Shown: positions 1-35,913 of the stretch, in pieces
How the letters are laid out: every line of letters begins with the position of its first letter
How positions within the stretch are numbered: position 1 is the stretch's first letter
NCBI GenBank assembly: GCA_964642615.1
Contig: CAZXSW010000001.1
Coordinates: forward strand, 42,945-106,944
DNA from: an uncultured Rikenellaceae bacterium
GTDB taxonomy: Bacteria > Bacteroidota > Bacteroidia > Bacteroidales > VadinHA17
Reading direction: 5' to 3'
DNA: 64,000 nt
Position numbers and translations under genes: made by a program
Notes under the pieces: generated by a model
Told to the model about the DNA's origin: nothing
Database searches by the model: none
Seen by the model: the letters and a program-made list of their open reading frames with translations, nothing else

Positions 1-594
1 AAGCTCCCGCTTGTTGAGGAGTTCTATTCCCTGCAGGGAGAGGGATATCATACAGGAAAGGCGGCATATTTCGTACGTCTTGGCGGTTGTGATGTGGGCT
101 GCAGCTGGTGTGATTCCCGCTTTGCATGGGATAAGGATATGCATCCGATGGAAGACACCGACAGCATAATTGCTTCAGTACTGGGTTCAGGAGCTGATTC
201 TGTTGTGGTTACCGGAGGTGAACCCCTGATGTGGAACCTCGATTATCTGTGCTCACAACTGAAACAAAACAAAATTTGTACCTTTATTGAGACCAGCGGA
301 GCATATCCCTTGAGCGGTGAGTGGGACTGGATCTGTCTTTCACCAAAGAAAAATATGCCGCCTGTGGGCGATATATGCAATAAAGCCAATGAATTAAAGG
401 TTATTATAGAAACACCAGCTGATTTTGAATGGGCTGAGAAGTATAGCCGTATTGTCAGGGATGACTGTCATCTCTTCCTTCAGCCTGAATGGAAAAGGTT
501 TGAAGAAGTCATTCCCTTTATTGTTGATTATATCAAAGAAAACACAAAATGGAGAATTTCCCTGCAGGCGCACAAGTACATGCACATTCCGTGA
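1..594 (+). CDS. queE: 7-carboxy-7-deazaguanine synthase QueE (radical SAM), 5-prime end cut by the window edge
   Basis: Frame 1 is open from base 1. The translation KLPLVEEFYSLQGEGYHTGKAAYFVRLGGCDVGCSWCDS carries a CxxxCxxC cluster in a QueE-like context. The stop is at 592-594. The listed ORF 94..594 is the internal Met of the same frame. Confidence 0.8.
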   Translation, partial: KLPLVEEFYSLQGEGYHTGKAAYFVRLGGCDVGCSWCDSRFAWDKDMHPMEDTDSIIASVLGSGADSVVVTGGEPLMWNLDYLCSQLKQNKICTFIETSGAYPLSGEWDWICLSPKKNMPPVGDICNKANELKVIIETPADFEWAEKYSRIVRDDCHLFLQPEWKRFEEVIPFIVDYIKENTKWRISLQAHKYMHIP

Positions 595-598
595 AACT

Positions 599-2527
599 AT
601 GAAACCTCTGACAGTATTGGTCTTCCTTCTTTACGCACTATTGCCTGTTACGGCAGAAGCACAGCAGCTACATACCTCTTCTGCAAGGGCTGCAAGGTTT
701 TACAGAGAAGGCTCACAGAGCTATGATTTTTTTGACTATACCGGTGCCGAGGCTAATCTCAGGCAGGCTGTCCAGGCTGATCCACGTTTCTACGAGGCTC
801 ATATGGTACTTGCAGAGCTGTATTCAAAACAGAAGCGTTATACCGAGTCGGCCAGGCATTACCGTGAGGCCGTAAAAATTGACTCGCTCTATTTCCCTCC
901 TGTATTATTTCAGCTTGCAAATTCGGAGCTTATGTCGGGAGATTATGAAATGGCTTTGATACACTACAGGGCTTATCTTGATCAAAAGGATATCTCGTCA
1001 AAAAACGAGGTGCTGGCACGAAGGAATGTTCTCAACTGTGAGTTCGCCATTGAAGCCCTTAAACATCCTGTCCAGTTCAGTCCGGTTAATATGGGAAAAG
1101 GAATTAATTCGGCTGATGATGAGTACTGGCCATCAATAACGGCTGACGGGCTTACAATGATGTTCACCCGTCAGGGAAGACCAGCTGAAAGGGGAATGAA
1201 CCGGGTGCCTGCACAGGAAGATTTCTATCTTAGTTATTTTGGTGAAGATGGATGGTCAGTGGCAGTAAATGCCGGCCCTCCTCTGAATTCGCCGGCAAAT
1301 GAGGGAGCCCAGACTCTTTCTTCGGACGGAACCTATATGTACTTCACAGCCTGCGACAGGCCCGGCGGTGCCGGAAGTTGTGATATCTACTTCTCTTCCT
1401 TCTCCTCAGGGAAATGGTCGATACCCTTTAATGTTGGTCCGCCTGTCAATACAAGCCATTGGGAATCACAACCTTCTGTCAGTGCCAACGGACGTATGCT
1501 TTTCTTCTCAGGCAATAAGCCGGGAGGATTTGGAGGGAAAGATCTCTGGTACTCTGTAAAGAAGAAAGATAACAGCTGGTCGGAGCCAATCAATATGGGA
1601 GCTATGATAAACACTGATGGCGATGAGATGTCTCCTTTTATCCATTTTGATGGAAGAACCCTTTACTTCTCTTCAGATGGCAGACCAGGAATGGGTGGAT
1701 TTGACATTTATATGACCAGGATGGATGATGATTCCACCTGGACTGAGCCGCGAAATCTGGGTTATCCTGTCAATACATATAACGATGAAACCGGTCTTGT
1801 AATTGAATCAGGAGGGCAGAAAGCATTTTTCTCATCGGTGAGGGATAATGTCAACAGGAAGGATATCTGGTATTTCAATCTTGCAGAATCAATAAGGCCC
1901 GATCCGGTTTCATATCTGAAGGGAAAGGTTGTTGATCGTGAGACAGGGCTTGCTTTACAGGCAGACTATGAACTGATAGGCATATCATCACAGGAGATTC
2001 TTGTTGAGAGCACAACCGATCAGAACGGAAATTTCCTTGTATGTCTGCCGGCAGGTAATAATTATGGCCTAAACGTAAGAAAGACGGGATATCTGTTCTA
2101 CTCAGGCAGTTTTATGCTTGAAGGGGAACACGGTGCTGCAACGCCGTTTATCAAGCAGATACCCCTGAACCCGGTAAGGGCTGGAGAAAAGATGCTATTG
2201 TCGAATGTGTTCTTCGAAGTTGATTCCTGGCTTCTTAAAAATGAATCACGGGCAGAACTTAATAACCTTGTTGATCTTCTAAAGGAGAATATTGAGGTTG
2301 TTGTCGAGATAGGCGGTTATACCGATTCGACCGGGTCTGATGAGCATAACCTGGTATTATCAGAGAGAAGGGCCCGGTCTGTTGTCGATTATCTCGTCTC
2401 AAAAGGAATTGAGGCAGACCGCCTTAAGCCGAAGGGCTATGGGAATGCTTCTCCCGTAGGCGACAATGTTACCACTGAAGGCAGAAGACTCAACAGAAGA
2501 ACGGAAGTCAAGATACTGGAAGATTAA
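599..2527 (+). CDS. OmpA-family outer-membrane/periplasmic protein with TPR and TolB-type (PD40) beta-propeller repeats
   Basis: ATG at 599 is followed by a signal peptide, MKPLTVLVFLLYALLPVTAEAQ. There is a TPR-like N-terminal region and repeated PD40-like motifs (DEYWPSITADG, ESQPSVSANG, EMSPFIHFDG). The C-terminal OmpA-like domain reads GYTDSTGSDEHNLVLSERRARSVVDYL...NRRTEV. The 425..598 extension in the ORF track overlaps queE and was rejected. Confidence 0.85.
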   Translation: MKPLTVLVFLLYALLPVTAEAQQLHTSSARAARFYREGSQSYDFFDYTGAEANLRQAVQADPRFYEAHMVLAELYSKQKRYTESARHYREAVKIDSLYFPPVLFQLANSELMSGDYEMALIHYRAYLDQKDISSKNEVLARRNVLNCEFAIEALKHPVQFSPVNMGKGINSADDEYWPSITADGLTMMFTRQGRPAERGMNRVPAQEDFYLSYFGEDGWSVAVNAGPPLNSPANEGAQTLSSDGTYMYFTACDRPGGAGSCDIYFSSFSSGKWSIPFNVGPPVNTSHWESQPSVSANGRMLFFSGNKPGGFGGKDLWYSVKKKDNSWSEPINMGAMINTDGDEMSPFIHFDGRTLYFSSDGRPGMGGFDIYMTRMDDDSTWTEPRNLGYPVNTYNDETGLVIESGGQKAFFSSVRDNVNRKDIWYFNLAESIRPDPVSYLKGKVVDRETGLALQADYELIGISSQEILVESTTDQNGNFLVCLPAGNNYGLNVRKTGYLFYSGSFMLEGEHGAATPFIKQIPLNPVRAGEKMLLSNVFFEVDSWLLKNESRAELNNLVDLLKENIEVVVEIGGYTDSTGSDEHNLVLSERRARSVVDYLVSKGIEADRLKPKGYGNASPVGDNVTTEGRRLNRRTEVKILED

Positions 2528-2612: not shown

Positions 2613-3449
2613 TCATATATTAATCATGGTTTTTATTGATTTTTTAGCTGAAGCATCACTGTTTTCTGCGACACCTGCGGGAACAGAGAAATAGATCCCT
2701 GTTCCTGTCAGTCCGTTACATTCAAGTCTTATGCTTCCACCGAGCAGGCCTATGATCTTCCTTACAAGCATTATATTTATAGCCGAATACAGATCGTTGA
2801 ATTTTCCCAGTGAAGCGCTCAGATCGCTGGTTTCGAAGAATTCCCTGTTTTTGAAGTAACCCATTCCCGAGTCGAGAATGTAGAAATTAAAAAGGCCATC
2901 CCTGATATTATAGCCTATTTTAATATAGCCAGATCGTGTATTGGAAAGAGATATCTGAAAAAGATTCCGAATTACCCTTTTTACTTTTCCTGTATCAATT
3001 AAAAACTCTTCCCTCTTAATAACCTGGTTTTCTGTTACAAGCAGGATATCCTTGTACTTGTCCTTTCTGAGAGTATCCCTGAAATCATTTAAGATCTCTT
3101 CAAGGAAATTATCAGTTTTGCCTCTTCCCGTTTCTGCCGTTGAATTACCCGTATCAATTATGGCTGAATCGAGGAAGTTGTCGAAAAGCTCAATAAGCTG
3201 TTCACAAGCCTGAAGTATCTGGTTGCCAAAATCTTCCCTTTCTTCTTTGGCATACTCATCCTTCGACAGAAGAAATGAGAATGCTACAACTGCATTCATC
3301 TGTGTTCTCATCTCATGCGACATCCCTGTAAGCACAGCCTGGTTGTCTGCCACGTCCGTGCAGGATGAAACCGCAACAATATCTGAATTCTCATGCCTCA
3401 TATCACGCCTCTCCTGATCTCTATCACCGTATGTATTCAGATTGAACAT
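2613..3449 (-). CDS. histidine kinase (HisKA + HATPase_c) without a recognisable sensor or TM domain
   Basis: H-box SHEMRTQMNAV lies about 45 aa from the N-terminus. N-box-like NLFQISLSNT, G1 DSGMG and G2 GLTGTG are present. No hydrophobic segment is visible. The gene starts 21 bp downstream of the TPR gene on the same strand. Confidence 0.8.
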   Translation of the reverse strand: MFNLNTYGDRDQERRDMRHENSDIVAVSSCTDVADNQAVLTGMSHEMRTQMNAVVAFSFLLSKDEYAKEEREDFGNQILQACEQLIELFDNFLDSAIIDTGNSTAETGRGKTDNFLEEILNDFRDTLRKDKYKDILLVTENQVIKREEFLIDTGKVKRVIRNLFQISLSNTRSGYIKIGYNIRDGLFNFYILDSGMGYFKNREFFETSDLSASLGKFNDLYSAINIMLVRKIIGLLGGSIRLECNGLTGTGIYFSVPAGVAENSDASAKKSIKTMINI

Positions 3450-3470
3450 ATGAATAGCTTTTAGTAACCC

Positions 3471-4220
3471 TTAATCAATCTTTTTAAGAATTTTTGCTGC
3501 CTCTTTTCTGTATATACTTCTTGAATTCCTTATTTCAGTCAGTTGTTTGACGGCCCTGTCATTTTCATCGCTCTTGACGTAACAGAGTGCCAGATACCAT
3601 CTTGCTTCCTCTATAAACAGGTTGTCATTGTCGTCAATGACCTTTACAAAGGATTTTTCTGCTTCAGGATAGTTGCTTATCTCAAAATTGGAAACACCAT
3701 AAAGAAGGGTCGATTCCATATTCTTTGAATCCTGTTCAACAACTTTGCTGAAATATAAAGCTGCACTTTTGTAATCGCGAACCTTGTAATATTCAACACC
3801 TAGCAGGAAATCCTGATTTATTCCTGAAGCAGCCGACCTGGATGGTGCGGTAACCTCATATGACCTGTAGTATTTGTCAAATATTTCGGAGTTGCTCAGA
3901 TTGCCATTACTTAAGAGGGCAATTGCTCCGAACAGCACAAAAGCACCGGCAGCTGCAGCGTATTTAAGGTTCCGGCTTCCGGCAGAAGATCGTCTGACCG
4001 GTGGTTGTTCCATCCGTTTCTTTTCGATGGAATTAAGTTTGTTTCTCAGAGCCATGACGTCACTATCCTTGAGGATCGCTTCGGTCTTTTTCCGTAACTC
4101 AACCTCCCTGCGAAGCTTTTCATTGCCCTCGAGCTCCTTCTCGAACCATTTATTTTCTTCAGTATTCATCTCGCCGGCATTATACCTTTCGATGAAATAC
4201 GAAAAATCAATTGTCTTCAT
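3471..4220 (-). CDS. single-pass membrane TPR protein, putative anti-sigma factor
   Basis: The N-terminus FIERYNAGEMNTEENKWFEKELEGNEKLRREVE resembles the cytoplasmic N-termini of Bacteroidota FecR-type anti-sigma factors. A TM segment YAAAAGAFVLFGAIALLS is present. The C-terminal region of about 140 aa has TPR-like repeats (YKSAALYFSKVVEQD, YPEAEKSFVKVI, RWYLALCYVK). The anti-sigma role is inferred. Confidence 0.7.
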   Translation of the reverse strand: MKTIDFSYFIERYNAGEMNTEENKWFEKELEGNEKLRREVELRKKTEAILKDSDVMALRNKLNSIEKKRMEQPPVRRSSAGSRNLKYAAAAGAFVLFGAIALLSNGNLSNSEIFDKYYRSYEVTAPSRSAASGINQDFLLGVEYYKVRDYKSAALYFSKVVEQDSKNMESTLLYGVSNFEISNYPEAEKSFVKVIDDNDNLFIEEARWYLALCYVKSDENDRAVKQLTEIRNSRSIYRKEAAKILKKID

Positions 4221-4379
4221 TTCTGTCTATTTATGTAATTTATACCTTAAATCACTAAAGGCATTATTCCCAAAGCCTGTTGTCAGAGAATTTGATTTAT
4301 GGCATCAGCTGCCATTATCAGTTTCTCACTTCATCCTGCCAGGCCGGTCACGACCTGTTGCAGAATCAGCAACACAGAA

Positions 4380-4409
4380 CCAAAACCAATACTAAAACCA
4401 AAACCAAAA
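4380..4409. repeat. five tandem hexamers CCAAAA/CCAATA/CTAAAA/CCAAAA/CCAAAA, i.e. (TTTTGG)n on the minus strand
   Basis: Read directly from the sequence: CCAAAACCAATACTAAAACCAAAACCAAAA. It lies immediately downstream of the peptide-gene terminator and about 160-190 nt upstream of the TPR gene start (minus-strand sense). Confidence 0.85.
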
Positions 4410-4425
4410 CAGAGTGCTAAAATAT

Positions 4426-4459
4426 CCTGTCACGCCCAACGCCGGGCAACTTCGACAGG
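4426..4459 (-). terminator. rho-independent terminator candidate after the GG-leader peptide gene
   Basis: On the minus strand, CCTGTC...GACAGG forms the outer stem with a nested GCCC-GGCGTT-GGGC stem, followed by ATATTTT and the T-rich hexamer repeat. It starts 14 nt after the peptide stop codon. Confidence 0.5.
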
Positions 4460-4472
4460 GAGCTTATTTTGT

Positions 4473-4613
4473 TCAGATTTTTACTGTAGGAGGATTCGGC
4501 AATAAAATGGGCACGCCTTCTTCACCACCACCGCGAACGGCAAACATCTCTTCGTTTGAAAGTGCAAATTCGTTGAAATTCTCGTTGGTTTTTTCAAAAT
4601 TCAGGGTTTTCAT
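4473..4613 (-). CDS. 46-aa double-glycine (GG) leader peptide precursor, absent from the supplied ORF track because it is shorter than 60 aa
   Basis: My own translation of the minus strand gives MKTLNFEKTNENFNEFALSNEEMFAVRGGGEEGVPILLPNPPTVKI. ATG is at 4613-4611 and TGA at 4475-4473. The leader LSNEEMFAVRGG fits the LSxxELxxIxGG export-leader pattern. A hairpin terminator follows. A C39-peptidase ABC exporter lies 4 kb away. Confidence 0.6.
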   Translation of the reverse strand: MKTLNFEKTNENFNEFALSNEEMFAVRGGGEEGVPILLPNPPTVKI

Positions 4614-4859
4614 TTCTTTTAATTTTTTAATTGATACTCATTTGGGTAATTCGTGTATTCATTGTTACATGTCGGCAACCCTGGTTTTGTGACACGAAAA
4701 AATCAACTTTTTTTCAAAAAAAAAACAACGATTTCAAATTCAGGAACTTACAAACGGTAAATTTTTTATTTTTTGTTCGGGTTTGGATTTAAAAATAATA
4801 GATTTGTTATTTATACGGTAAAAATCTTATTTTGTTTATCTTCATCCCGGGAAAATCTT

Positions 4860-7800
4860 ATGCATTACTTTTTTTTACATGGAATATTGGCATTTCTCTT
4901 ATTGTTGCCTTCCGGGATCAGAAACTCACAGACTCACCAGGAAGAAGGGACAGGAATCGGAACAGGGGAGATAGTACTCCCTGAAGGGGAAACCAGTCTT
5001 CCTTCTCTTAACACCCTGCTTAGACAAAGCCTTACCACAGGGGATGCCGCTCAAACAAGATCCTATGTTGACAGTATACTTCGGTTAGCCCGACAGGGAG
5101 TAACAGATTCTGCGGCTCTTTCTGAATCATATTATCTTATCGGGGTTTTTGAACTTATCTCAGGCAACCCGGGGAAAGGTATAGAATGGCTGACTCTTGC
5201 AGGTTCTGTACTAGAGAGGAACGGGAGGCAGGAAGAATTATATGCCAGGACTCTGTACAATATTGGTGTGGGATATAATTCTCTTGGTGATTTTGAGCAG
5301 ATGTCAGATTATACCCTGAGGTCTGTTGAGATCGAAAGAAAACTCTTTGGAAACAGCAGCCCATCACTTGTGCAGGGGCTTTTGAGTCTGGTTACTGCCT
5401 GTATTGAGCTACAGGAGTACGACAGGGCAGTGGCCTTTGGCAGTGAGGCCCTGGATATTATTAATAAACAGCCTCCTGGTATGTTCTCTGCCAGCTATGA
5501 ACCCGACCTTTACCTGAATCTTGGTGTATGCTACTACAGACTTTCAGATTTTTCAAAATCAGTTCTTTATCTTGAAAAAGCTGAATCATTCTATTCGGCC
5601 GGTACTATGACAAGAGATGAGAAATATATAAATCTTCTGAACAGCCTTGCTGTCACTTACGGCTATCTCGGTCAGATGGAGAAGTCGCTCCATTTTTACG
5701 GGAGGGGGCTGGAGATTGCTGAAATGATAAACTCATCACTGTCGTATAATTTCATAAACAGCTATGCAATAGCTCTGGGAAATTCGGGCAGGGTTGCTGA
5801 GGGACAGAAGATTCATTCCTCGCTTCTTGAAAGGGTCGGGAAATTGTACGGAAAACAGTCGGGGCCCTATATAGAAGTACTTAAGAATTATGCCGATTAT
5901 CTGAGGATTTATAGTATTGATCCCTTACTGGCTCTATCACACTACGAAGAATGTATTAATTATACAGAATCACATCCCGATGAGCAGGCTTTAAGGGATC
6001 CCGTTATGCTGGGATATGCTCTTACCCTCTCGGCAAATAATAAGAATGAAAAGGCCCTTGAAATAATTACCAGGCTTTCAGATCAGGTGTCAGGCTCAAG
6101 GGATGGTCCGGATGCCAGTTCCCTGAAAGCAGATCAGAAATCACTCCTTTACCTGAGGGCCAGGTACGCAATACTTAAAGGCCTTTACAGAGAATCAGGC
6201 AGGGCCGGATTATTGTTCGAGACGGCTAACACGTCAGAGGAAATAATAAAGCTTCTTGAGAGAATCAGAATCAATATAAGCGAAGAGGAGAGCAGGCTCA
6301 TTCTCGGGGACCGCTACCGCGATTCATATCTTATGGCTATAAATGACTTTTATCTTTGTTTTAACGAGAGCGGTGATCCCGTATACCTTAAAAAGATCTT
6401 TGAATACTCTGAAAAAAGCAAAGTCGCCGGATTACTGACTGCTACAAGAGAACTCAAAGCAGTCCAGTTCCATATACCACCAGCTATAGCAGAACTGGAG
6501 AGAGAGCTGCAGCGTTCTATAAACTACTACAATGCAAAAATCGCCGATGAGAATCTCAGTATCAATCCGGATGCTTTACTTCTTCAGCAATGGAACTCAA
6601 TACTGCTCAGCGTCACAATGAGAAGAGACTCTCTTATAACAGTACTTGAAAAGAAATATCCCGAATACTACTCCTTAAGATATAATACAGAAGTGGCCGG
6701 AATGAACAAGATCCATGAACTTATAGGCAGAAACGCAAACTATCTGAATTATATAGTCTCCGATTCGGTTATATATCTGTTTGTGGCAAACAGAAAGCAT
6801 CAGCAATTCCTGACCATTCCGGTTGATTCAGCCTTCTTTAGTCAGGCTATGGAATTCAGGAGTCTGCTTTCTCATCCTGCCCCTTCAGGCAATGCACGAA
6901 GTGATTTCAGAAAATACTGCAAAACTGCCCATGAGCTGTTTTTACTACTTGTAGAACCTGCAAAGCCCTTCCTTATTTCAGACAAACTGTTCATATCACC
7001 CGATAATATTCTTTCCTACCTTCCCTTTGAGACTTTTCTAACCGGGGAGTCGGATTATGATGACATGCTTTACAGGGAACTTCCCTACGCGATGAGGGAA
7101 TATGAGATCTCGTACATTTATTCAGCTACCATGCTGGCCGAATCACTTAAAAGGAAGATAAGCTTCAGCAACAGCCTGGTGTCTTTTGCTCCTTCATACA
7201 AAGACAGGTTATTTTCAGATTCACTCCTATTGAGCAGGCAGGGCTTCTCAGGGTCTCTTCCCGATCTTCCCTATGCAAGGGACGAGGCTGAATTTGTTGC
7301 GGGGATTGCAAAAGGTGACCTTTATCTCAATAACGAAGCCACCGAAACTGCTTTTAAATCTCTGGCAGGAAATTATGATATAGTCCACCTGGCAATGCAC
7401 ACCCTGCTCAACGACAGAATGCCAATGCATTCAAGGATGATCTTTTCGGCCGGGGAAAGTGACGAAGACGGCTTCCTTAATACTTACGAGATATATGGTA
7501 TGCCTCTGAAAGCAAAGATGGTGGTGCTAAGTTCATGCAACACAGGAGTCGGATTATCCTATTCCGGAGAGGGAATCCTCAGCCTGGCCAGAGGCTTTAT
7601 CTACAGCGGCAGCCAGTCGGTGATAATGTCGTTATGGGAGATAGAAGACAGGTCGGGGACGGAGATAGTAAAGGAATTTTACAGGAATCTGAAAAGAGGC
7701 GATTCCAAAAGCAATGCCCTTAGAAGAGCAAGAGTAAGATATATGAAAGACGCTGATCAGCTAAGATCTCATCCATATTTCTGGTCGTCGCTTGTTGTTT

Positions 7801-7907
7801 ACGGCAACAACTCCCCGGTCTATCATTTGCATCAGATGCTTAGGGTTCTGGCTGTAACAACAATTCTAGCCCTTGGTGTTTTCGTGATCTACCGGAGATC
7901 CAGATAA
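4860..7907 (+). CDS. TPR-repeat CHAT-domain (caspase-like) protease with an N-terminal signal/TM and a C-terminal TM anchor
   Basis: The ATG at 4860 (MHYFFLHGILAFLLLLPSG) is preferred over the TTG at 4773. About 400 aa are TPR-like (YNIGVGYNSLGDFEQ, LNLGVCYYRLSDFSKS, LNSLAVTYGYLGQMEKS). The CHAT dyad context is IVHLAMHT and VVLSSCNTGVG. The C-terminal TM LAVTTILALGVFVIY is followed by RRSR. Confidence 0.85.
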   Translation: MHYFFLHGILAFLLLLPSGIRNSQTHQEEGTGIGTGEIVLPEGETSLPSLNTLLRQSLTTGDAAQTRSYVDSILRLARQGVTDSAALSESYYLIGVFELISGNPGKGIEWLTLAGSVLERNGRQEELYARTLYNIGVGYNSLGDFEQMSDYTLRSVEIERKLFGNSSPSLVQGLLSLVTACIELQEYDRAVAFGSEALDIINKQPPGMFSASYEPDLYLNLGVCYYRLSDFSKSVLYLEKAESFYSAGTMTRDEKYINLLNSLAVTYGYLGQMEKSLHFYGRGLEIAEMINSSLSYNFINSYAIALGNSGRVAEGQKIHSSLLERVGKLYGKQSGPYIEVLKNYADYLRIYSIDPLLALSHYEECINYTESHPDEQALRDPVMLGYALTLSANNKNEKALEIITRLSDQVSGSRDGPDASSLKADQKSLLYLRARYAILKGLYRESGRAGLLFETANTSEEIIKLLERIRINISEEESRLILGDRYRDSYLMAINDFYLCFNESGDPVYLKKIFEYSEKSKVAGLLTATRELKAVQFHIPPAIAELERELQRSINYYNAKIADENLSINPDALLLQQWNSILLSVTMRRDSLITVLEKKYPEYYSLRYNTEVAGMNKIHELIGRNANYLNYIVSDSVIYLFVANRKHQQFLTIPVDSAFFSQAMEFRSLLSHPAPSGNARSDFRKYCKTAHELFLLLVEPAKPFLISDKLFISPDNILSYLPFETFLTGESDYDDMLYRELPYAMREYEISYIYSATMLAESLKRKISFSNSLVSFAPSYKDRLFSDSLLLSRQGFSGSLPDLPYARDEAEFVAGIAKGDLYLNNEATETAFKSLAGNYDIVHLAMHTLLNDRMPMHSRMIFSAGESDEDGFLNTYEIYGMPLKAKMVVLSSCNTGVGLSYSGEGILSLARGFIYSGSQSVIMSLWEIEDRSGTEIVKEFYRNLKRGDSKSNALRRARVRYMKDADQLRSHPYFWSSLVVYGNNSPVYHLHQMLRVLAVTTILALGVFVIYRRSR

Positions 7908-8452
7908 TCCCTGTACTCCTCATCTTCCCTTACCAGTTCCATAAGAGCTTCTTTTGCAAGATACTTCTTGCGCCTGGCATAAGCTTCACTGCCCAGATTC
8001 ATCTGCCCTGCAATCTCTTCATATGACAGACCGTCTGAAAAGAGCCTTAGTATCTGCTGGAAATCATTCTGAAGTTTTGAAAAAGATCTTGACAGGATAC
8101 GCTCGAGAATAAGATCCTTGCTTTCATCCTGACCATCTTCGTCAGCGATATCCTGATCCAGAACTGTGTTCCTGCTGTTCCTCCTTAGCTGGACGCTCCA
8201 TATATTCCGTGCAATTCCGAAAAAATAACCTTTAAGATCAGAGGTAAGAGTGAAATGATCCTCTGAGATCTGCCTGTAGAGTGCTATAATAGTTTCCTGG
8301 AAAACGTCAGATACATCATCTTCATTACCACTGTTTTTAAGGATGTGATGCCTTACAGTCTGCAGGAAATTATTATACAGCCAGTTAAGAACTTTCTCAT
8401 CCTGTTTGCGGATCCCTTCAATAAGGTCACTATCAGAATATTTCCGAAACAA
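7889..8452 (-). CDS. ECF-type (group 4-like) sigma-70 family RNA polymerase sigma factor
   Basis: 187 aa with only sigma-2-like (VSDVFQETIIALYRQI) and sigma-4 HTH-like (LSYEEIAGQMNLGSEAYARRKKYLAKEAL) regions. Its 3-prime end overlaps the CHAT gene 3-prime end by 19 bp (7889-7907) in convergent orientation. Confidence 0.85.
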   Translation of the reverse strand: MFRKYSDSDLIEGIRKQDEKVLNWLYNNFLQTVRHHILKNSGNEDDVSDVFQETIIALYRQISEDHFTLTSDLKGYFFGIARNIWSVQLRRNSRNTVLDQDIADEDGQDESKDLILERILSRSFSKLQNDFQQILRLFSDGLSYEEIAGQMNLGSEAYARRKKYLAKEALMELVREDEEYRDYLDLR

Positions 8453-8607
8453 TCTCGCCGAAGTTTGAAATAAATTAACAAATATACTGGTTCCGGTAGT
8501 AATTGTATATCTCTCAGAACACCATGCTATTTTAAAAATAGTGTAAAGTAAATTTAAAATAAATAATAAATATCTTTACTTGTCAAAATAATCCGGAATA
8601 AGAAAGT

Positions 8608-10794
8608 ATGGCATTCCCGTTTGTGAAACAACCAGATTCCATGGATTGCGGTCCTGCATGCCTGAAGATGGTTGCTGCATTTCATAAAAGAACTATTTCG
8701 CTTGAGACGCTCCGGAAAAAAAGTTATATAGGCAAGGAAGGTGTTTCCTTTATGGGCCTCTCTGAAGCTGCAGATTCAATAGGCTTCAGAACAACAGGAG
8801 TAAGGATTCCTTTCAGGGTCCTTGACGGCAATCTGCCTCTCCCTGCCATTGTCCATTGGAAACAGAAACATTTTGTTGTCGTCTATAAAACAGGGAAGGG
8901 GAAGGTGTGGGTTGCTGATCCGGCTGCCGGACTTATGAAGTATACCAACGAGGATTTTGTTAGGAACTGGGCATCCACCATCTCGGAAGGCGAACCATCC
9001 GGACTTGCCCTCATCCTTGAGCCTACACCTGCTTTCTTTGAGAATGAAGACGAGAAGGAAGCTCACGGAGGATTCAGGTTCCTTTTTGAATATTTTAATC
9101 TTTACAGGAAATATTTGTTTCAACTTATCCTGGGTCTGTTAATAGCCAGTTGTATCCAGCTGGTGATCCCCTTTCTTACCCAGTCGGTTATTGATATAGG
9201 TCTGAATAACAACGATCTTAATTTCATATACCTTGTTCTTTTTGCCCAGCTTGCTCTTGTTATAGGAAGGATGTCGGTCGAATTTATAAGGGGATGGCTG
9301 CTTCTGCATATAGGATCAAGAGTGAATGTGGCAGTGGTATCGGGATTCCTTCAGAAACTGATGTCGCTGCCTGTTTCTTTTTTTGATGCCAGGCTTACAG
9401 GCGACATACTTCAGAGAGTTGATGATAATTACAGGATCGAGGAGTTCCTGACTTCAGCAAGCCTTAATATTATTTTCTCTTTCTTCAACCTTGTCGTATT
9501 CGGAATAGTTCTTGCCGTTTACAGCCTTAAAATTTTTCTGGTCTTTCTTGCCGGGACATTTCTGTATATCCTGTGGGTGACTCTCTTCGTCAAGCCAAGG
9601 GCAAAGCTCGACTATCTGAGGTTCAAGGAGATGTCGGTGGCCACTACAAAACTCATTAACATCATCAACGGGATGCAGGAGATTAAGCTTTCAAGGACCG
9701 AGACATCCATGAGGTGGGAGTGGGAAAAACACCAGGCTTCATTGTTCAGACTTAAGGTAAGAGGACTTGGACTTATTCAGTACCAGTCGGCGGGAGCCAC
9801 CTTTATAAACGAGGTTACCAACATCTTCATTACCATTATGGCTGCCACGGCTGTTCTTAACGGGCAACTGACCCTCGGGATGATGCTGGCCGTACAGTTT
9901 ATTATCGGGCAGCTTAATGTTCCTGTAAGCCAGATAATTGGATTTCTGAGAATCTCCCAGGATGCAAGGATTAGTCTTGACAGACTTGCCGAAGTCCACA
10001 GGATGGAAGAGGAGGAGGAAAATTCGGAACTTAAGGTAAGAAGCCTTCCTGAGAAAAAAGATATTTATATAAACAATCTCTCGTTCCAGTACGAGGGGCC
10101 ACATTCTCCCTATGCCCTTAGAAATATAGACCTGGTAATTGAGGCAAACAAAACAACCGCCATCGTTGGCACCAGCGGAAGCGGAAAGACTACTCTGCTC
10201 AGGATGATACTTGGATTCTACCAGCCTGGTGAAGGTGAAATTATTGTCGGAAACACCCGCCTGTCGAATATAAGTCTTAAAACCTGGCGTGAAAGGGTGG
10301 GGGCCGTAATGCAGAACGGCTTTCTCTTTCCCGATTCTATAGCCAGAAACATAGCTCCGGGTTCAGAGGATATAAATGAGGAAAGAATGATTTATGCAGC
10401 AGGTATTGCAAATATAAGGAGCTACATAGAATCTCTTCCTCTTAACTATAACACCAGGATAAGTGCCAACGGTCATGGACTGAGCGAAGGACAGAAACAA
10501 AGACTGCTGATAGCAAGAGTAATTTATAAAAACCCTGAGATACTGATCTTTGACGAAGCAACTAACTCACTGGATGCCAACAATGAAATGGCCATTGTTG
10601 AAAACCTTTCAGGTTTTTTCGAGGGCAAAACTGTTGTTATTGTTGCTCACAGGCTCAGTACAGTAAGGGATGCAGACAGAATCGTTGTGCTTGATAACGG
10701 AAGAATAGTTGAGTCGGGAGACCATGAGTCTCTTATAAAAAGCAGAGGTGCATATTTCAACCTGATAAAAAACCAGCTTGAACTGGGTAACTGA
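8608..10794 (+). CDS. peptidase-C39-domain ABC transporter (double-glycine peptide cleavage/export ATPase-permease)
   Basis: The N-terminal C39 domain has catalytic Cys in QPDSMDCGPACL, His in KHFVVVY and Asp in VADP. It is followed by 6-TM ABC membrane domain-like segments, Walker A GTSGSGKTT, signature LSEGQKQR and Walker B ILIFDEAT. Confidence 0.9.
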   Translation: MAFPFVKQPDSMDCGPACLKMVAAFHKRTISLETLRKKSYIGKEGVSFMGLSEAADSIGFRTTGVRIPFRVLDGNLPLPAIVHWKQKHFVVVYKTGKGKVWVADPAAGLMKYTNEDFVRNWASTISEGEPSGLALILEPTPAFFENEDEKEAHGGFRFLFEYFNLYRKYLFQLILGLLIASCIQLVIPFLTQSVIDIGLNNNDLNFIYLVLFAQLALVIGRMSVEFIRGWLLLHIGSRVNVAVVSGFLQKLMSLPVSFFDARLTGDILQRVDDNYRIEEFLTSASLNIIFSFFNLVVFGIVLAVYSLKIFLVFLAGTFLYILWVTLFVKPRAKLDYLRFKEMSVATTKLINIINGMQEIKLSRTETSMRWEWEKHQASLFRLKVRGLGLIQYQSAGATFINEVTNIFITIMAATAVLNGQLTLGMMLAVQFIIGQLNVPVSQIIGFLRISQDARISLDRLAEVHRMEEEEENSELKVRSLPEKKDIYINNLSFQYEGPHSPYALRNIDLVIEANKTTAIVGTSGSGKTTLLRMILGFYQPGEGEIIVGNTRLSNISLKTWRERVGAVMQNGFLFPDSIARNIAPGSEDINEERMIYAAGIANIRSYIESLPLNYNTRISANGHGLSEGQKQRLLIARVIYKNPEILIFDEATNSLDANNEMAIVENLSGFFEGKTVVIVAHRLSTVRDADRIVVLDNGRIVESGDHESLIKSRGAYFNLIKNQLELGN

Positions 10795-10802
10795 AACAGT
10801 AA

Positions 10803-12092
10803 ATGAACTACGGGAATAAAAAACTGATCTTCTCCGAACCTGTTAATGAGATAATAGGTGATCCTCCGCGGAAAATTGTAAGATGGGGGACATCTGTTAT
10901 ATTGGTTGTGATAGTACTTTTTATCTTCTTCGCCTGGCTGATCAGATACCCCGATATTGTTCCCTCTCCCGTTGAAATAACTACAGCAAATCCGCCGGTT
11001 ACCCTAGTGGCACGAATATCGGGAAGGATCAAGAATCTTTATGTAAAGGATCAGGACCACGTCAGAAAAGGAGACCTGCTGGCTGTTATGGAGACAGCCG
11101 CTTCAATTGATCAGGTAAGGCATATGAAACTAATTGCCGATTCTATTACAGATCCCGGATCAGTCTCATCTGCCATTCTGCCAGTATTCTCACAGCTTGG
11201 CGAATTACAGTCCTACTGGGGCGGATTCATAAAAAACCTTACTGATTATAATATCTTTGTTGCCAACGACTTCTATGGAAGTAAAATAGAAGCTGTTCTT
11301 AAGGAACTGAAAGGTCTTGATGAATATATAGCCAGGGCAAGAGTGAAGGAAAAACTTCATTCTGAAAATCAGTTGCTTGAAATAAAAAAATTCCGGAGGG
11401 ATTCGTCACTTTTTGCCAATGGGGTGTTTTCTGAAAGCGATTTTGAAAAATCACGTCAATCCCTGCTGAGGATCAATATGGAGCTCCAGGAAGTCAGGCT
11501 CGATCAGTCTGCAAAGGTGATCGAATATGCCGAAAGAAGCCAGCTGCTTCAGGATTACCGGATAAAACGTGAAGAAGAGAGGTCGGGATTGTTAACGCTC
11601 GTCAATGAGTCGTTTCTTAACCTGAAGGCACAGACAAGCATCTGGGAGACAAACTATCTGCTTTATTCTCCTGTCGATGGGACAGTGACCTTTACCAGGT
11701 ACTGGAGCGAAAACCAGTCAGTGCTTCAGGATGAACCGGTACTTAGTGTGGTCCCTGCCGATGCCGGCGAATACATTGGAAGGATTAGTCTGAAGATGCA
11801 AAGATCGGGCAAAGTTGAAGTGGGACAAAAAGTAAATCTCAAGATGAGCGGATATCCCTACCTTGAATATGGAATGGTAAGAGGACTTGTAAGATCAAAA
11901 TCCCTGGTCCCGTCAGCGGATGCCTATATCATAGAAATCAGCCTGCCGGAGGGACTTACAACACTCTACGGCCGGCAAATAGGATTTACACAGAATATGC
12001 AGGGAACAGCTGAAATCATTACCCGCGACCTCCGGCTGATTGAGAAGATATTCAATCCCTTCAGGCACCTGGCATCAAAAAGCAGGCAATAA
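10803..12092 (+). CDS. HlyD-family membrane-fusion/secretion adaptor protein
   Basis: N-terminal TM (WGTSVILVVIVLFIFFAWL), a lipoyl-like motif VRKGDLLAVME, a long coiled-coil centre and a C-terminal beta-barrel-like region. It starts 8 bp after the ABC gene. Confidence 0.85.
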   Translation: MNYGNKKLIFSEPVNEIIGDPPRKIVRWGTSVILVVIVLFIFFAWLIRYPDIVPSPVEITTANPPVTLVARISGRIKNLYVKDQDHVRKGDLLAVMETAASIDQVRHMKLIADSITDPGSVSSAILPVFSQLGELQSYWGGFIKNLTDYNIFVANDFYGSKIEAVLKELKGLDEYIARARVKEKLHSENQLLEIKKFRRDSSLFANGVFSESDFEKSRQSLLRINMELQEVRLDQSAKVIEYAERSQLLQDYRIKREEERSGLLTLVNESFLNLKAQTSIWETNYLLYSPVDGTVTFTRYWSENQSVLQDEPVLSVVPADAGEYIGRISLKMQRSGKVEVGQKVNLKMSGYPYLEYGMVRGLVRSKSLVPSADAYIIEISLPEGLTTLYGRQIGFTQNMQGTAEIITRDLRLIEKIFNPFRHLASKSRQ

Positions 12093-12721: not shown

Positions 12722-14776
12722 ATGACAACAAACAATCCGGATGACACTGTTCTTGATGAACAGTACGGTGCTGAAAAAAACACCGGTTCTGAGAATAAAG
12801 AAGATACGGCAGAAGCCGGGGCTGATATCACTGGAGCCGGGGAAAATGAATATGCTGAAAAGAAAGCCGGAAGCGACACAGTTGCTGAACCGGAAGCCTC
12901 AGCCGACCAGGAAGCAGATGAACCTGTTGAAGAGAAAGCCGGAAGCGACACAGTTGCTGAACCGGAAGCCTCAGCCGGCACTGAAGAAAACGTGGAGAGT
13001 GAAAGCGGAGAAGCGGAAGTCAGCGATCTTGACAACATTGAACTTCCTCCGGTTGATTATTCAGGTTTCTCAAAACAGGAACTGGCCGAAACCCTGGCTC
13101 TGATAATAGAAAACCGTCCTCCTTCCGAGATCAGGGATGATGTTGAAAGGATCAGAATCTTTTTCTATAAGAAACTTAAGCAGGAAGCCGAAGAGAGAAA
13201 GAAAAAATTTCTTGATGAGGGCGGAAAACCTGAAGAATACAAAGTGTGGGTCGATCCTCTCGACTATCAGGTGAAGGAAATGCTTGAAAAGTACAGGGAG
13301 AAAAAAAACGACTACAATAAGATTCAGGAATCGGAGAAATACGAGAACCTGAAAAAGAAATATGAGATCATTGACAAGATAAAGGACCTTGTAAACAGGG
13401 AGGAATCAATAAACAAGACCTTCCATGATTTCAGGCTTCTGCAGAACGAGTGGCATTCAACAGGTGTGGTCCCCCAGTCATCACTTAAAGATCTGTGGGA
13501 GAACTATCATCATAATGTCGAACTCTTCTATGATTATATAAAGATCAACAAGGAACTCAGGGACCTTGACCTTAAAAAAAACCTTGAAGCAAAGGTCGTA
13601 CTATGTGAAAAGGCAGAGGAACTGCTGCTGGAGCCTAATCCGGTAAATGCCTTCAGAGCCCTGCAGGACTTCCATAACCAATGGCGTGAGATAGGTCCGG
13701 TTCCCATCGAATCAAAAAATGAGATATGGGAACGATTCAGGGAAGCCACATCACAGATAAACAGGCGACATCACGAGTATTTCGAGAACCAGAAAGATGA
13801 ACAGCGGAAAAACCTGGAGGCTAAAATGGCTTTGTGTGAGCAGGTGGAAAGTATCAACCTTCAGGAGATAAAGAGCTTCAGGGAGTTTGATGAGACAGCT
13901 GATAAGATTGTATCCCTTCAGAAGATGTGGAGGACTATTGGCTTTGCTCCCAAGAAACAGAATAACAAAGTTTACCAGAGGTTCAGGGAAGCATGCGATG
14001 CCTTTTTTGAAAAGAAAAGAAGCTTCTACTCCGACAATAAGGAAACCCAGCTCAATAATCTTCAGCTTAAAACAGAACTCTGTATTCAGGCTGAAGCCCT
14101 TCAGGGCAGTACTGACTGGAAAAACACTTCCGACGCACTTATTAAGCTTCAGAAGGAGTGGAAGGAAATAGGTCCTGTCCCCCGGAAGCAGTCTGAAAGG
14201 ACCTGGAAGAGATTCAGAAAAGCCTGTGATCATTTTTTTAATATGAAAGCCGAGCATTTTGCAAGTCTTGACAATTCATATGAAGATAATCTAAAGGCCA
14301 AAGTGGCTATTATCGATGAACTTGAGAAGTTTGAGCCGGGTAATGATGTTCACTCCGCCTTTGAACGACTTAAGGAAATACAGAGGAGATGGACAGAAAT
14401 TGGTTTTGTGCCCTTCAATAAAAAGGATGAAATAACAAACAGATACAGAAATGCTCTTAACCAGGAGTTCGACAAACTCAGAATAGGTGATGATGACAAG
14501 AGCATCCTGAAATACAGGACCAAGCTTGACAGTCTTAAGACAAATCCCAAAGCATCAAGAAAAGTAAGGAACGAAAGAGAGAAGTTTTTTACAAGGATCA
14601 AACAGCTTGAAGGCGATATCGTTTTGTGGGAGAATAATATAGGCTTCTTTGCCAAGTCTGCCAATGCCGACAATATGATAAGGGAGGTTCAGGAGAAAAT
14701 CGAAAATGCGAAGAAGATGATTAAGACCCTTGAGGAAAAGGTTAAAATGATCGATCAATCAGGGCTTGATGAATAA
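12722..14776 (+). CDS. DUF349 repeat protein with an acidic N-terminal tandem duplication
   Basis: Multiple DUF349-type repeats are present (W.EIGPVP....E.W.RFR.A.D.FF, e.g. WKEIGPVPRKQSERTWKRFRKACDHFF). The acidic N-terminus contains a duplicated EKKAGSDTVAEPEASA. Confidence 0.85.
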   Translation: MTTNNPDDTVLDEQYGAEKNTGSENKEDTAEAGADITGAGENEYAEKKAGSDTVAEPEASADQEADEPVEEKAGSDTVAEPEASAGTEENVESESGEAEVSDLDNIELPPVDYSGFSKQELAETLALIIENRPPSEIRDDVERIRIFFYKKLKQEAEERKKKFLDEGGKPEEYKVWVDPLDYQVKEMLEKYREKKNDYNKIQESEKYENLKKKYEIIDKIKDLVNREESINKTFHDFRLLQNEWHSTGVVPQSSLKDLWENYHHNVELFYDYIKINKELRDLDLKKNLEAKVVLCEKAEELLLEPNPVNAFRALQDFHNQWREIGPVPIESKNEIWERFREATSQINRRHHEYFENQKDEQRKNLEAKMALCEQVESINLQEIKSFREFDETADKIVSLQKMWRTIGFAPKKQNNKVYQRFREACDAFFEKKRSFYSDNKETQLNNLQLKTELCIQAEALQGSTDWKNTSDALIKLQKEWKEIGPVPRKQSERTWKRFRKACDHFFNMKAEHFASLDNSYEDNLKAKVAIIDELEKFEPGNDVHSAFERLKEIQRRWTEIGFVPFNKKDEITNRYRNALNQEFDKLRIGDDDKSILKYRTKLDSLKTNPKASRKVRNEREKFFTRIKQLEGDIVLWENNIGFFAKSANADNMIREVQEKIENAKKMIKTLEEKVKMIDQSGLDE
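12861..12977 (+). repeat. perfect 45-bp direct repeat (12861-12905 and 12933-12977), period 72 bp, in frame within the DUF349 gene
   Basis: AGAAAGCCGGAAGCGACACAGTTGCTGAACCGGAAGCCTCAGCCG occurs twice, read directly from the sequence. Confidence 0.9.
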
Positions 14777-19577: not shown

Positions 19578-19654
19578 AATATTTGTTACCATCCTGTTAA
19601 TAAATAGCCCCTGCATTGTATTGATTCATCACTGAAATCAAATACTTTTGTCTT

Positions 19655-19846
19655 GTTACGGTATCACGGTAATTTTATACCGTGATCGTGATTAAGAGGG
19701 AATGCGGTGTGATTCCGCAACAGTACCCGCTGCTGTGATGCCCGATCGTTCAAACGATGATGGCTTATGAAATACCTGCCACTGTTCCTTTGCGGAATGG
19801 GAAGGCTTCATAAACCGGGATAAGTCAGAAGACCTGCCGTAAGTAA
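19655..19846 (+). promoter_or_regulatory. cobalamin (B12) riboswitch
   Basis: Conserved core AAGAGGGAATGCGGTGTGATTCCGCAACAGTACCCGCTGCTGTGA, B12 box GCCACTG (19778-19784), GGGAAGGC, and AGTCAGAAGACCTGCC. It lies directly upstream of a TonB-dependent receptor gene. Confidence 0.85.
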
Positions 19847-19849
19847 AGT

Positions 19850-35839: not shown

Positions 35840-35913
35840 GGTTCCGTAGCTCAGTTGGATAGAGCAACAGCCTTCTAAGCTGTGGGTCGAGCGTTCGAGT
35901 CGCTCCGGAATCA
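35840..35913 (+). tRNA. tRNA-Arg (anticodon UCU)
   Basis: Cloverleaf read by hand. The acceptor stem is GGTTCCG/CGGAATC with one G-U pair. The D-arm is AGCTCAGTTGGATAGAGC. The anticodon loop is CTTCTAA. The T-arm is GTTCGAGTC. No encoded CCA. Confidence 0.93.

Follow-up and report, generated by a model that had tools for sequence, protein, structure and literature searches.

A stretch of 64,000 nucleotides from an uncultured Rikenellaceae bacterium (assembly GCA_964642615.1, contig CAZXSW010000001.1, positions 42,945-106,944 of the forward strand; hereafter the window, meaning this whole stretch) raises the question of whether seven adjoining genes operate as one regulatory system. These genes code for a peptide with a double-glycine (GG) leader, a C39 ATP-binding cassette (ABC) exporter with its HlyD-family periplasmic adaptor, a sigma factor of the extracytoplasmic function (ECF) type, an anti-sigma-like (ASL) protein with tetratricopeptide repeats (TPRs), a TPR-CHAT protein and a soluble histidine kinase. 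An initial annotation of the locus hypothesized that the exported peptide is a signal bound by periplasmic TPRs, and that the CHAT protease would then cleave the ASL protein to release the sigma factor. Based on comparisons of the locus within and beyond its clade, we are fairly confident that the genes form one sigma-centred signalling unit in which the peptide is sigma dependent.

The seven genes fill positions 2613-12092, and the list of translated open reading frames (ORFs) contains no further ORF of plausible size between them. Matches in Pfam and NCBIfam agree with all domains that had been named, which bears out the earlier description of a block with nothing unrelated inside it. A public contig with an identical locus carries the same gene calls from an independent gene caller, including the 46-amino-acid ORF.

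To assess conservation within the clade, we scanned one genome per species, which gave 370 relatives, and compared the best 80 loci. Gene order and orientation are alike in all of the best 80 loci: PorE-like, kinase, ASL, peptide, CHAT, sigma, exporter, adaptor, DUF349 and PyrG, with insertions of approximately 2-3 kb at the edges of the core block only. The sigma and CHAT genes converge, and all 80 loci share an overlap of their 3' ends, which measures 19 bp in the window. One locus (L073) has no peptide gene and likewise lacks the kinase gene. Synteny within the clade alone is no proof of a functional unit because the housekeeping flanks are equally syntenic. Genes for the PorE-like protein, DUF349 and PyrG keep their places as well as the module does, and so the module genes might have been inherited side by side without working together.

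That explanation is exceedingly improbable, and we view it as already refuted by loci from distant clades. These loci were found by reading the contigs of sigma-family representatives. In L084, whose sigma and CHAT proteins are 33% and 29% identical to those of the window, a GG-peptide gene is divergent from CHAT, CHAT is convergent with sigma, and the neighbours code for a peptidase M64 and an MscS channel. Another distant member (L085, approximately 30% identity) keeps the window order, from the kinase and ASL through three or more tandem peptide genes to CHAT and sigma, but its flanks are unrelated to those of the window and its C39 exporter is 9 kb away. A metagenome scan anchored on sigma, using an alignment of five sigma sequences, provided 80 loci, of which 46 are window-like and 34 have other flanking genes. 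Among the latter, a co-directional sigma-ASL pair faces CHAT in 11, sigma faces CHAT directly in 8, approximately 12 end before CHAT could be seen, and 2 have only a weak same-strand CHAT match 2-3 kb away. There is no CHAT gene within 10 kb in L121, and for L102 the assessment is limited to 2 kb of sequence. In L089 (three copies), L094, L118, L124, L132 and L139, GG-peptide genes are divergent from CHAT. The C39 exporter and HlyD adaptor genes lie directly 3' of the peptide gene in L118, and the kinase comes after the peptide genes in L089.

The strongest argument for one functional system is therefore that its parts travel together while their order and context change. Shared inheritance would also leave unexplained the promoter motifs that link sigma and peptide genes, and GG leaders need a C39 exporter. 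The initial annotation had staked its hypothesis on co-occurrence beyond this genome, and this is found in 80 of 80 related species-level genomes of Bacteroidales as well as in distant clades with other flanks and order.

Promoter motifs provide the second line of evidence. A candidate sigma-dependent promoter precedes the peptide-ASL-kinase operon (Table 1), and the corresponding block in the window clade has the consensus GTGTCACAAA-N12-GACATGTA with a T tract before it and is 90-99% conserved. The block is unique within the 64-kb window. It has 75 matches in 81 loci, of which 71 are located 39-83 nt upstream of the first peptide ATG, whereas the remaining 4 are from contig-edge loci or from L073. 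The latter locus (L073:9510-10001) has kept a peptide-type promoter about 100 nt before its ASL gene, and it retains sigma, CHAT, exporter and adaptor. L073 could represent a non-producer that still listens.

Outside the window clade, 14 loci have GGGTTACCTTTT-N10-12-G(G)AATA or, at the least, the GGTTACCTTT core of this motif 20-50 bp upstream of sigma. The same motif also precedes the peptide gene in 8 loci, and both genes bear the motif in L089, L094 and L097. When one motif precedes both an ECF sigma gene and its neighbour, this is a classical sign of ECF autoregulation and regulon membership. Because the same motif precedes sigma and peptide genes in these clades, we infer that the peptide operon, which includes ASL and the kinase in the window clade, is sigma dependent. 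In L117, an additional copy of the motif upstream of sigma faces leftward, but no convincing ORF for another regulon member was found behind it. A scan for E. coli-type promoters was uninformative for Bacteroidetes.

Table 1. Genes of the module and candidate regulatory elements, with positions in the window
Feature	Position (nt)	Strand	Product length	Basis
Soluble histidine kinase	2613-3449	-	278 aa	HisKA
Anti-sigma-like TPR protein (ASL)	3471-4220	-	249 aa	TPR matches and weak anti-sigma match
GG-leader peptide	4473-4613	-	46 aa	Double-glycine leader
TPR-CHAT protein	4860-7907	+	1015 aa	CHAT, E 3.3e-58
ECF-type sigma factor	7889-8452	-	187 aa	TIGR02937 above curated cut-off
C39 ABC exporter	8608-10794	+	728 aa	Peptidase_C39, ABC_membrane, ABC_tran
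HlyD-family periplasmic adaptor	10803-12092	+	429 aa	HlyD family
Candidate sigma-dependent promoter of peptide-ASL-kinase operon	4663-4695	-		GTGTCACAAAA-N9-CCGACATGTAACA, T-rich tract before it
Conserved block upstream of sigma gene	8478-8495	-		GGAAATAnTATATTTGTC as read towards sigma, alignment of 78 loci
Conserved block upstream of exporter gene	8563-8582	+		AATA(A/T)AAATATCTTTACTT, 90-99% conserved
Terminator-like hairpin after kinase stop codon	2528-2561	-		13-bp stem followed by T run
Hairpin 14 nt after peptide stop codon	4426-4459	-		Fold prediction

The hairpin after the kinase gene likely ends the peptide-ASL-kinase operon, and it also faces the end of the PorE-like gene. A second hairpin follows the peptide gene. 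Most of 73 loci have a hairpin in this position (median z of -1.84), and its stems vary in sequence while staying complementary. This structure was rejected as a canonical intrinsic terminator, since a T run is present in only 13 of the 73 loci. The rarity of the T run suggests a role in attenuation or transcript stabilization instead. No Rfam family matches inside the locus, including the 5' leader (window 4614-4662), where the conserved blocks ACGAATTACCC and AGTATCAA are located between the promoter motif and the peptide ATG. A low-complexity run of AACCAAAACC-like units (+ strand, window 4375-4415) occupies the space between the peptide hairpin and the ASL gene. Among the loci inspected, it was seen in L001 and L002, the two nearest relatives of the window, as well as in the window itself.

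The precursor peptide, MKTLNFEKTNENFNEFALSNEEMFAVRGGGEEGVPILLPNPPTVKI, consists of the leader MKTLNFEKTNENFNEFALSNEEMFAVRGG and the core GEEGVPILLPNPPTVKI, which has 16-17 residues depending on the position of the Gly-Gly cut. Its candidate mature forms are GEEGVPILLPNPPTVKI and EEGVPILLPNPPTVKI. The leader ends in ...ALSNEEMFAVRGG, in keeping with the LSxxELxxIxGG-like pattern of the double-glycine class, and is nearly invariant in 75 orthologues, with little or no variation at L(-12), E(-8), M(-7) and GG. No curated peptide family in Pfam or NCBIfam matches the precursor, orthologues of which were found in 74 of 81 loci. The core consensus from the 75 orthologues is G-[ED]-P-I-[IVL]-[KL]-P-x-x-P-P-[VI]-[KIR]-I-COOH. 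These cores are 12-18 amino acids long, have a net charge between -2 and +1 and contain a median of 4 Pro. All 75 have a Pro at position -5, and they share the conserved C-terminus ...PP[VI]x[IL]-COOH. Cores are conserved within a clade and different between clades, where examples include KSEDVYLPLK, MSDKSVLDDCLV, TDVRPRTRDKDIYNLDEE, TSGGGSTGIDEDILIPDPEPAN and one proline-rich 32-mer.

These features lead us to favour a signalling ligand over a bacteriocin. The predicted core is short, clade-specific, neither cationic nor amphipathic, and nearly always free of Cys (present in only 2 of 75), which sets it apart from class II bacteriocins and bacteroidetocins, whose cationic, amphipathic cores span about 25-60 amino acids, often with a disulfide, and come with a linked immunity gene. 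The peptide gene is also tightly linked to sensor genes. No immunity gene accompanies it, in that the window ORFs and the 80 related loci include no conserved gene for a small membrane protein in the module. The previously claimed absence of radical-SAM, LanM, YcaO or other maturases, of an immunity protein and of an outer-membrane channel holds within the locus according to Pfam and NCBIfam, and thus there is no candidate enzyme of the kinds that modify ribosomally synthesized peptides (radical SAM, LanM or YcaO). The sole nearby radical-SAM gene (window 94-594) is QueE-like and is therefore taken to be a housekeeping gene. In every clade, the peptide gene either shares an operon with the anti-sigma gene or directly adjoins the protease gene.

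Several loci carry more than one peptide gene. Five identical tandem copies with a 196-bp period are present in L030 (8677-9589), two diverged copies in L049 and three copies in L089, whereas the sequence upstream of the third tandem gene in L085 suggests a fourth copy there. Tandem arrangements of this kind represent amplification of precursor gene dosage.

The sigma factor belongs to ECF group 4, with a TIGR02937 score of 53.5 bits against a cut-off of 42.9 and additional matches to Sigma70_r2 and Sigma70_ECF. Its best match among solved structures, which covers the full length, is E. coli sigma-E (1or7). The protein ends in a family-specific C-terminal tail, YARRKKYLAKEAL...EDEEY, and a tail after region 4.2 (YARRKKY-x-CKE-x-L...DPEY) is kept in the sigma family down to 30% identity. 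This family comprises 1676 clusters, each with a representative, at E <= 1e-10.

The initial annotation paired this sigma factor with the ASL protein. Gene linkage in other clades argues for that pairing, as the ASL gene adjoins the 3' side of the sigma gene on the same strand at a distance of 10-70 bp, and overlaps it in L083. An ASL homologue directly follows sigma in 17 metagenome loci and in L083. In the window, the ASL gene is 3.7 kb from the sigma gene with the CHAT gene in between. An AlphaFold2 model of the window protein, with a predicted local distance difference test (pLDDT) score of 80.7, shows a cytoplasmic domain of four helices (residues 7-71), a transmembrane (TM) helix (88-104) and, after a linker, a periplasmic TPR domain (136-248). 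Profile searches agree in placing TPRs at residues 135-232, and they give a weak match to the NCBIfam 'anti-sigma factor' family NF052375 at residues 13-104. Conservation of the protein is highest over its N-terminal 50 residues. The ASL protein is supported indirectly as the anti-sigma partner by this linkage, conservation and modelled architecture.

Other searches with the ASL protein were less informative. The full-length protein matched only designed TPR proteins among solved structures, and the top match of its N-terminal domain profile, a Nif11 leader domain at E 0.0026, is regarded as chance. Neither the window protein nor any of 14 diverse homologues has a Cys/His zinc motif (HxxxCxxC or CHCC) within residues 1-80. 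The linker between the TM helix and the TPR domain carries the motif YYxSYE-x6-RS in the window protein (residues 116-129, window 3833-3874) and [FY]YxP[YD]E-x5-6-RS across all clades. Its invariant Arg-Ser may mark a candidate cleavage or docking site. The ASL family includes 851 clusters, which databases label only as 'TPR protein' or 'hypothetical'.

The putative protease is composed of an N-terminal signal-like segment, a TPR/helical scaffold of approximately 560 residues, a CHAT domain (PF12770, residues 689-983) of the caspase-fold, clan CD protease type and a C-terminal TM helix that ends in RRSR. Its catalytic dyad, H847 (LAMHT) and C893 (SSCNTG), is invariant in 20 close and 19 diverse homologues, and no clade examined departs from the motifs HLAMHT and LS[AS]CxTG. 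In 19 proteins that span all clades examined, the signal peptide is conserved, as is the C-terminal TM helix with its basic tail. Because basic residues follow the C-terminal helix, the positive-inside rule predicts that the body of the protein is periplasmic and tethered to the inner membrane. The sequence data thus support the claim that the protein is periplasmic and catalytically competent. The signal peptide that had been assigned to it is canonical for Sec export in the homologues, but the N-terminal hydrophobic segment of the window protein has no basic n-region. Full-length homologues number in the hundreds at 45-85% identity, and all are from metagenome-assembled genomes of Bacteroidales. 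More remote CHAT relatives were rejected as members of the module, as the Aureispira homologue (L086) has no sigma, ASL or peptide neighbour. Sequence searches of solved structures with the CHAT protein matched its TPR part only, and a Foldseek search of the PDB with its AlphaFold2 model likewise returned only TPR proteins (LGN, KLC and Ctr9).

With such a protease encoded next to the peptide gene, CHAT might act on the peptide rather than on ASL. It could trim the acidic or Gly-rich N-terminal stretch of the core in a second maturation step, or it could degrade the peptide as a quencher. The core does open with an acidic or Gly-rich segment of variable length, and its invariant part, which is hydrophobic and rich in proline, comes after a conserved [DE]-P junction. 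Two-step leader removal occurs in several class II lanthipeptides, and in all clades the peptide gene lies beside CHAT in divergent orientation. However, cleavage directly before proline is unfavourable for most proteases, and a TPR-CHAT protein of 1000 residues tethered to the inner membrane would be an odd tool for trimming a 17-mer. The strict linkage with sigma and ASL would also be left unexplained, and the CHAT gene is retained in loci that have no peptide gene (L073 and L104). We consider this role improbable.

The exporter has the architecture of a peptidase-containing ABC transporter, with a C39 domain (Peptidase_C39, E 1.4e-34), a six-TM domain and a nucleotide-binding domain. The GG-peptide gene is 4 kb away in the window and adjacent in L118. 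Residues Q8, C14 (DCGPAC), H88 (KHFVVV) and D104 (VADP) are in place in the C39 domain, and so the intact Cys/His/Asp triad reported in the initial annotation is confirmed in the sequence. The adaptor gene follows 12 bp (median) 3' of the exporter gene.

The kinase, whose gene is located 22 bp (median) downstream of the ASL gene, has a detectable HisKA domain but no TM segment or sensor domain, and Pfam gives no HATPase_c match. In 68 orthologues, the H-box (SHEMRT), N box and G1 box (DSGMG) are conserved. The G2 (GxGxG) ATP-lid box is replaced throughout the clade by a conserved non-glycine stretch resembling TAINITL, whereas it is canonical in L085. The original description of a sensorless histidine kinase is therefore accurate as to the missing sensor, but the degenerate G2 box in the window clade qualifies the word kinase. 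A protein of this sequence may act as a phosphatase or a pseudokinase. The gene is truly absent from five loci, and it is also found beside the module in the distant clades represented by L085, L089, L104 and L144. A stand-alone receiver protein of 128 amino acids is encoded in L167 (16088-16474), approximately 7 kb beyond the kinase, outside the left end of the window and beside a Cpn10 gene. Its role as the partner of the orphan kinase is possible but unsupported.

Among known systems, the closest parallel is DdvA/DdvS of Myxococcus, in which DdvA is a fused periplasmic TPR-CHAT anti-sigma factor and a proposed self-cleaving site-1 protease whose signal is unknown (PMC11506125). DdvA-like proteins have been reported only in Myxococcota and from a single species of Comamonas (PMC11506125). 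Both systems would hold an ECF sigma factor at the inner membrane through a system with a periplasmic TPR-CHAT protein that has a conserved His-Cys dyad. The proposed logic is also alike, with a CHAT site-1 cut in a juxtamembrane linker followed by intramembrane proteolysis. However, DdvA combines the anti-sigma domain, TM helix and TPR-CHAT in one polypeptide with a zinc-binding (CHCC) N-terminal domain, whereas the module described here uses two proteins, an ASL protein with its own small TPR domain and no zinc motif, and a CHAT protein anchored by a C-terminal helix. Moreover, DdvA has no associated exported peptide, exporter or kinase and controls a defence island, and the module is from Bacteroidales.

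The initial annotation had cited the type III-E Craspase as the precedent for this step, where Cas7-11 is associated with the TPR-CHAT protein Csx29, Csx30 and RpoE (PMC10028731). This comparison is sound in that a TPR-CHAT protease is linked to freeing an ECF-type sigma factor from an inhibitory partner, but it is more remote than DdvA/DdvS, which had not been cited (PMC11506125). Craspase is cytoplasmic, RNA-guided and CRISPR-associated, whereas the protease of the module is predicted to be periplasmic and has no CRISPR or defence genes near it.

The DdvA/DdvS parallel also suggests that the module could be a phage- or invader-sensing switch, wherein TPR-CHAT detects a foreign protein, sigma turns on defence genes elsewhere and the peptide is an accessory. 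The sole characterized ECF system linked to TPR-CHAT controls a CBASS/CRISPR island (PMC11506125). In the module, PADLOC finds no defence-family match for sigma, ASL, CHAT, the kinase or the peptide, and its exporter matches cover only the ATPase region. No cas genes are present in the 20-kb loci inspected. CHAT proteases are common in conflict systems, but this locus sits amid housekeeping genes and is stably inherited across the clade rather than patchy. In addition, the only motif-bearing genes seen are those of the module itself and one adjacent secreted-protein gene in L104. A role of this type is, in our estimation, very improbable.

Three other systems resemble the module at single points. 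In the DegS-RseA-sigmaE pathway of E. coli, C-terminal peptides of outer-membrane proteins (YxF-COOH) activate DegS to cut RseA. Here too, an inner-membrane-tethered periplasmic protease would respond to a free peptide C-terminus (...PPVKI-COOH) and cut a single-pass anti-sigma factor, and sigma-E is the closest solved structure to the sigma factor of the module. DegS is, however, a PDZ serine protease rather than a TPR protein with a caspase fold, and its activators are misfolded porins and not a dedicated product of C39 export. Pheromones of the ComC/ComAB type share with the module a GG precursor encoded beside a C39 exporter and an accessory protein, a short unmodified peptide, and a precursor gene that is predicted to be controlled by the pathway it may activate. 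In those Gram-positive hosts, sensing relies on the membrane histidine kinase ComD and a response regulator, whereas the module has a kinase with no membrane or sensor domain, no linked response regulator, an ECF sigma output and a diderm host. In the MibX/MibW and PspX/PspW systems of actinomycetes, a ribosomal peptide, once exported, is proposed to disable a membrane anti-sigma factor and thereby free an ECF sigma factor that drives the gene cluster of the peptide itself, but these peptides are heavily modified lantibiotics with immunity genes and no dedicated protease is involved. Craspase, ComABCDE, DegS/RseA and MibX/MibW each share one step with the module, and it is a member of none of them.

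Given these components, the preferred mechanism would proceed as follows. In the resting state, sigma, TPR-CHAT, the exporter and the adaptor would be made from their own promoters, with that of sigma being of the housekeeping type, and the four-helix N-terminal domain of ASL would hold sigma at the inner membrane, as suggested by gene linkage and architecture. The C39 domain would cut the precursor after Gly-Gly, and the ABC transporter with its HlyD adaptor would export the core. Cutting and export of GG precursors by C39 exporters is established knowledge. The mature peptide of 12-18 residues would reach the periplasm and might be bound there by the TPR array of either the protease or ASL. 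Peptide binding would activate the membrane-tethered CHAT protein, which as a site-1 protease would cut the juxtamembrane linker of ASL, and intramembrane proteolysis would then release the sigma factor. Consistent with the promoter motifs, sigma would transcribe the peptide-ASL-kinase operon from the candidate promoter in Table 1. This would create positive feedback via the peptide and a reset via newly made anti-sigma protein, while the kinase could form an output branch to an unlinked response regulator. We rate this full autoinduction model, as read from the sequences, at somewhat short of an even chance.

A number of observations weigh against the model. No outer-membrane channel or re-uptake route for the peptide is evident at the locus, and the module includes no receiver gene, which leaves the kinase without a response regulator as partner. 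The NF052375 match of ASL (E 2.9e-4) scores 20.9 bits and is thus below the curated cut-off of 100, and a profile of the ASL N-terminal domain matched no solved anti-sigma domain. Although the TPR part of the CHAT protein was modelled with confidence by AlphaFold2 from a 20-sequence alignment, its protease domain has a pLDDT below 50, and because of this poor modelling we draw no structural conclusion on the active site. The conserved block upstream of the window-clade sigma gene differs from the peptide promoter and carries no peptide-type motif. It includes TAnnTTTG, which we take to be the -7-like box of Bacteroidetes housekeeping promoters, and the block upstream of the exporter gene is also unlike the peptide promoter. 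There is no recognizable promoter motif for the L118 peptide. Furthermore, the sigma-type motif in L104 (15049-16344) precedes, in the position of the peptide gene, a gene for a 407-amino-acid secreted protein with a C-terminal tail typical of the type IX secretion system (T9SS), and the peptide is therefore not obligatory for the family. Finally, a sigma-dependent peptide gene fits a regulated secreted effector equally well as it fits autoinduction.

In that alternative, sigma, ASL and CHAT would respond to something else, for instance damage to the envelope, a competing organism or a protein from a host or phage, and the peptide would be a mere output without feedback, for example an antimicrobial, an adhesion or matrix component, or an interspecies signal. 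The sigma-type promoter of the peptide gene is as expected for such an output, the tandem peptide copies in L030 (five), L085 (at least three) and L089 (three) suggest high output, and the T9SS-tail protein of L104 indicates that this position holds a secreted product. The cue for DdvA/DdvS is likewise thought to be external (PMC11506125). However, a short, anionic to neutral core that is not amphipathic and nearly always lacks Cys does not resemble class II bacteriocins or bacteroidetocins, and the module has no conserved immunity gene. A mere output has no need for tight linkage to an anti-sigma or protease gene, and yet this linkage is present in every clade. We regard a role purely as a secreted effector as the main rival to autoinduction, although a less probable one.

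The full-text literature that we searched, including the ECF reclassification paper, yielded no published description of the module, although the coverage of this literature was incomplete. To our knowledge, no peptide pheromone system has been described in Bacteroidota, and none appeared in the literature searched. If autoinduction is correct, the module might be the first peptide autoinduction (quorum-sensing-like) circuit to be described in Bacteroidota. It might also be the first case of an exported, self-made peptide that switches on a separate, caspase-like TPR-CHAT protein of the periplasm as the site-1 protease of an ECF anti-sigma factor, with cores that diverge between clades along with their receptor like pherotypes. 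This proposal is tentative, and we give it a substantial chance that is nevertheless well short of even.

The surroundings of the locus are of the housekeeping kind and include genes for a PorE-like protein, a DUF349 protein, CTP synthase and YidC. Its immediate flanks code for a PorE-like TPR/PD40/OmpA protein (window 596-2527) and the DUF349 protein (window 12722-14776). These two are probably unrelated to the module, since they are syntenic across the clade and yet absent beside the module in distant clades. Farther away on the + strand, the window carries a cobalamin riboswitch (19642-19855; Rfam RF00174, 104.7 bits) and a tRNA gene (35840-35913; Rfam RF00005).

Overall, the module appears to combine ECF regulated proteolysis with GG-peptide export in a system that is real, widespread and undescribed, and for which the proposed mechanism is plausible. 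One conserved candidate circuit is found in uncultured Bacteroidales of digesters, fens, lakes and sediments, among which hundreds of species carry it. A large ECF subfamily can now be defined, whose members examined from several clades are linked to CHAT, and two explicit promoter motifs are available for regulon prediction. The module also presents the DdvA idea of site-1 cleavage by a periplasmic caspase-fold protease in a split form that is genetically tractable and in which the likely ligand is encoded next door, whereas work on DdvA is blocked by its missing signal.

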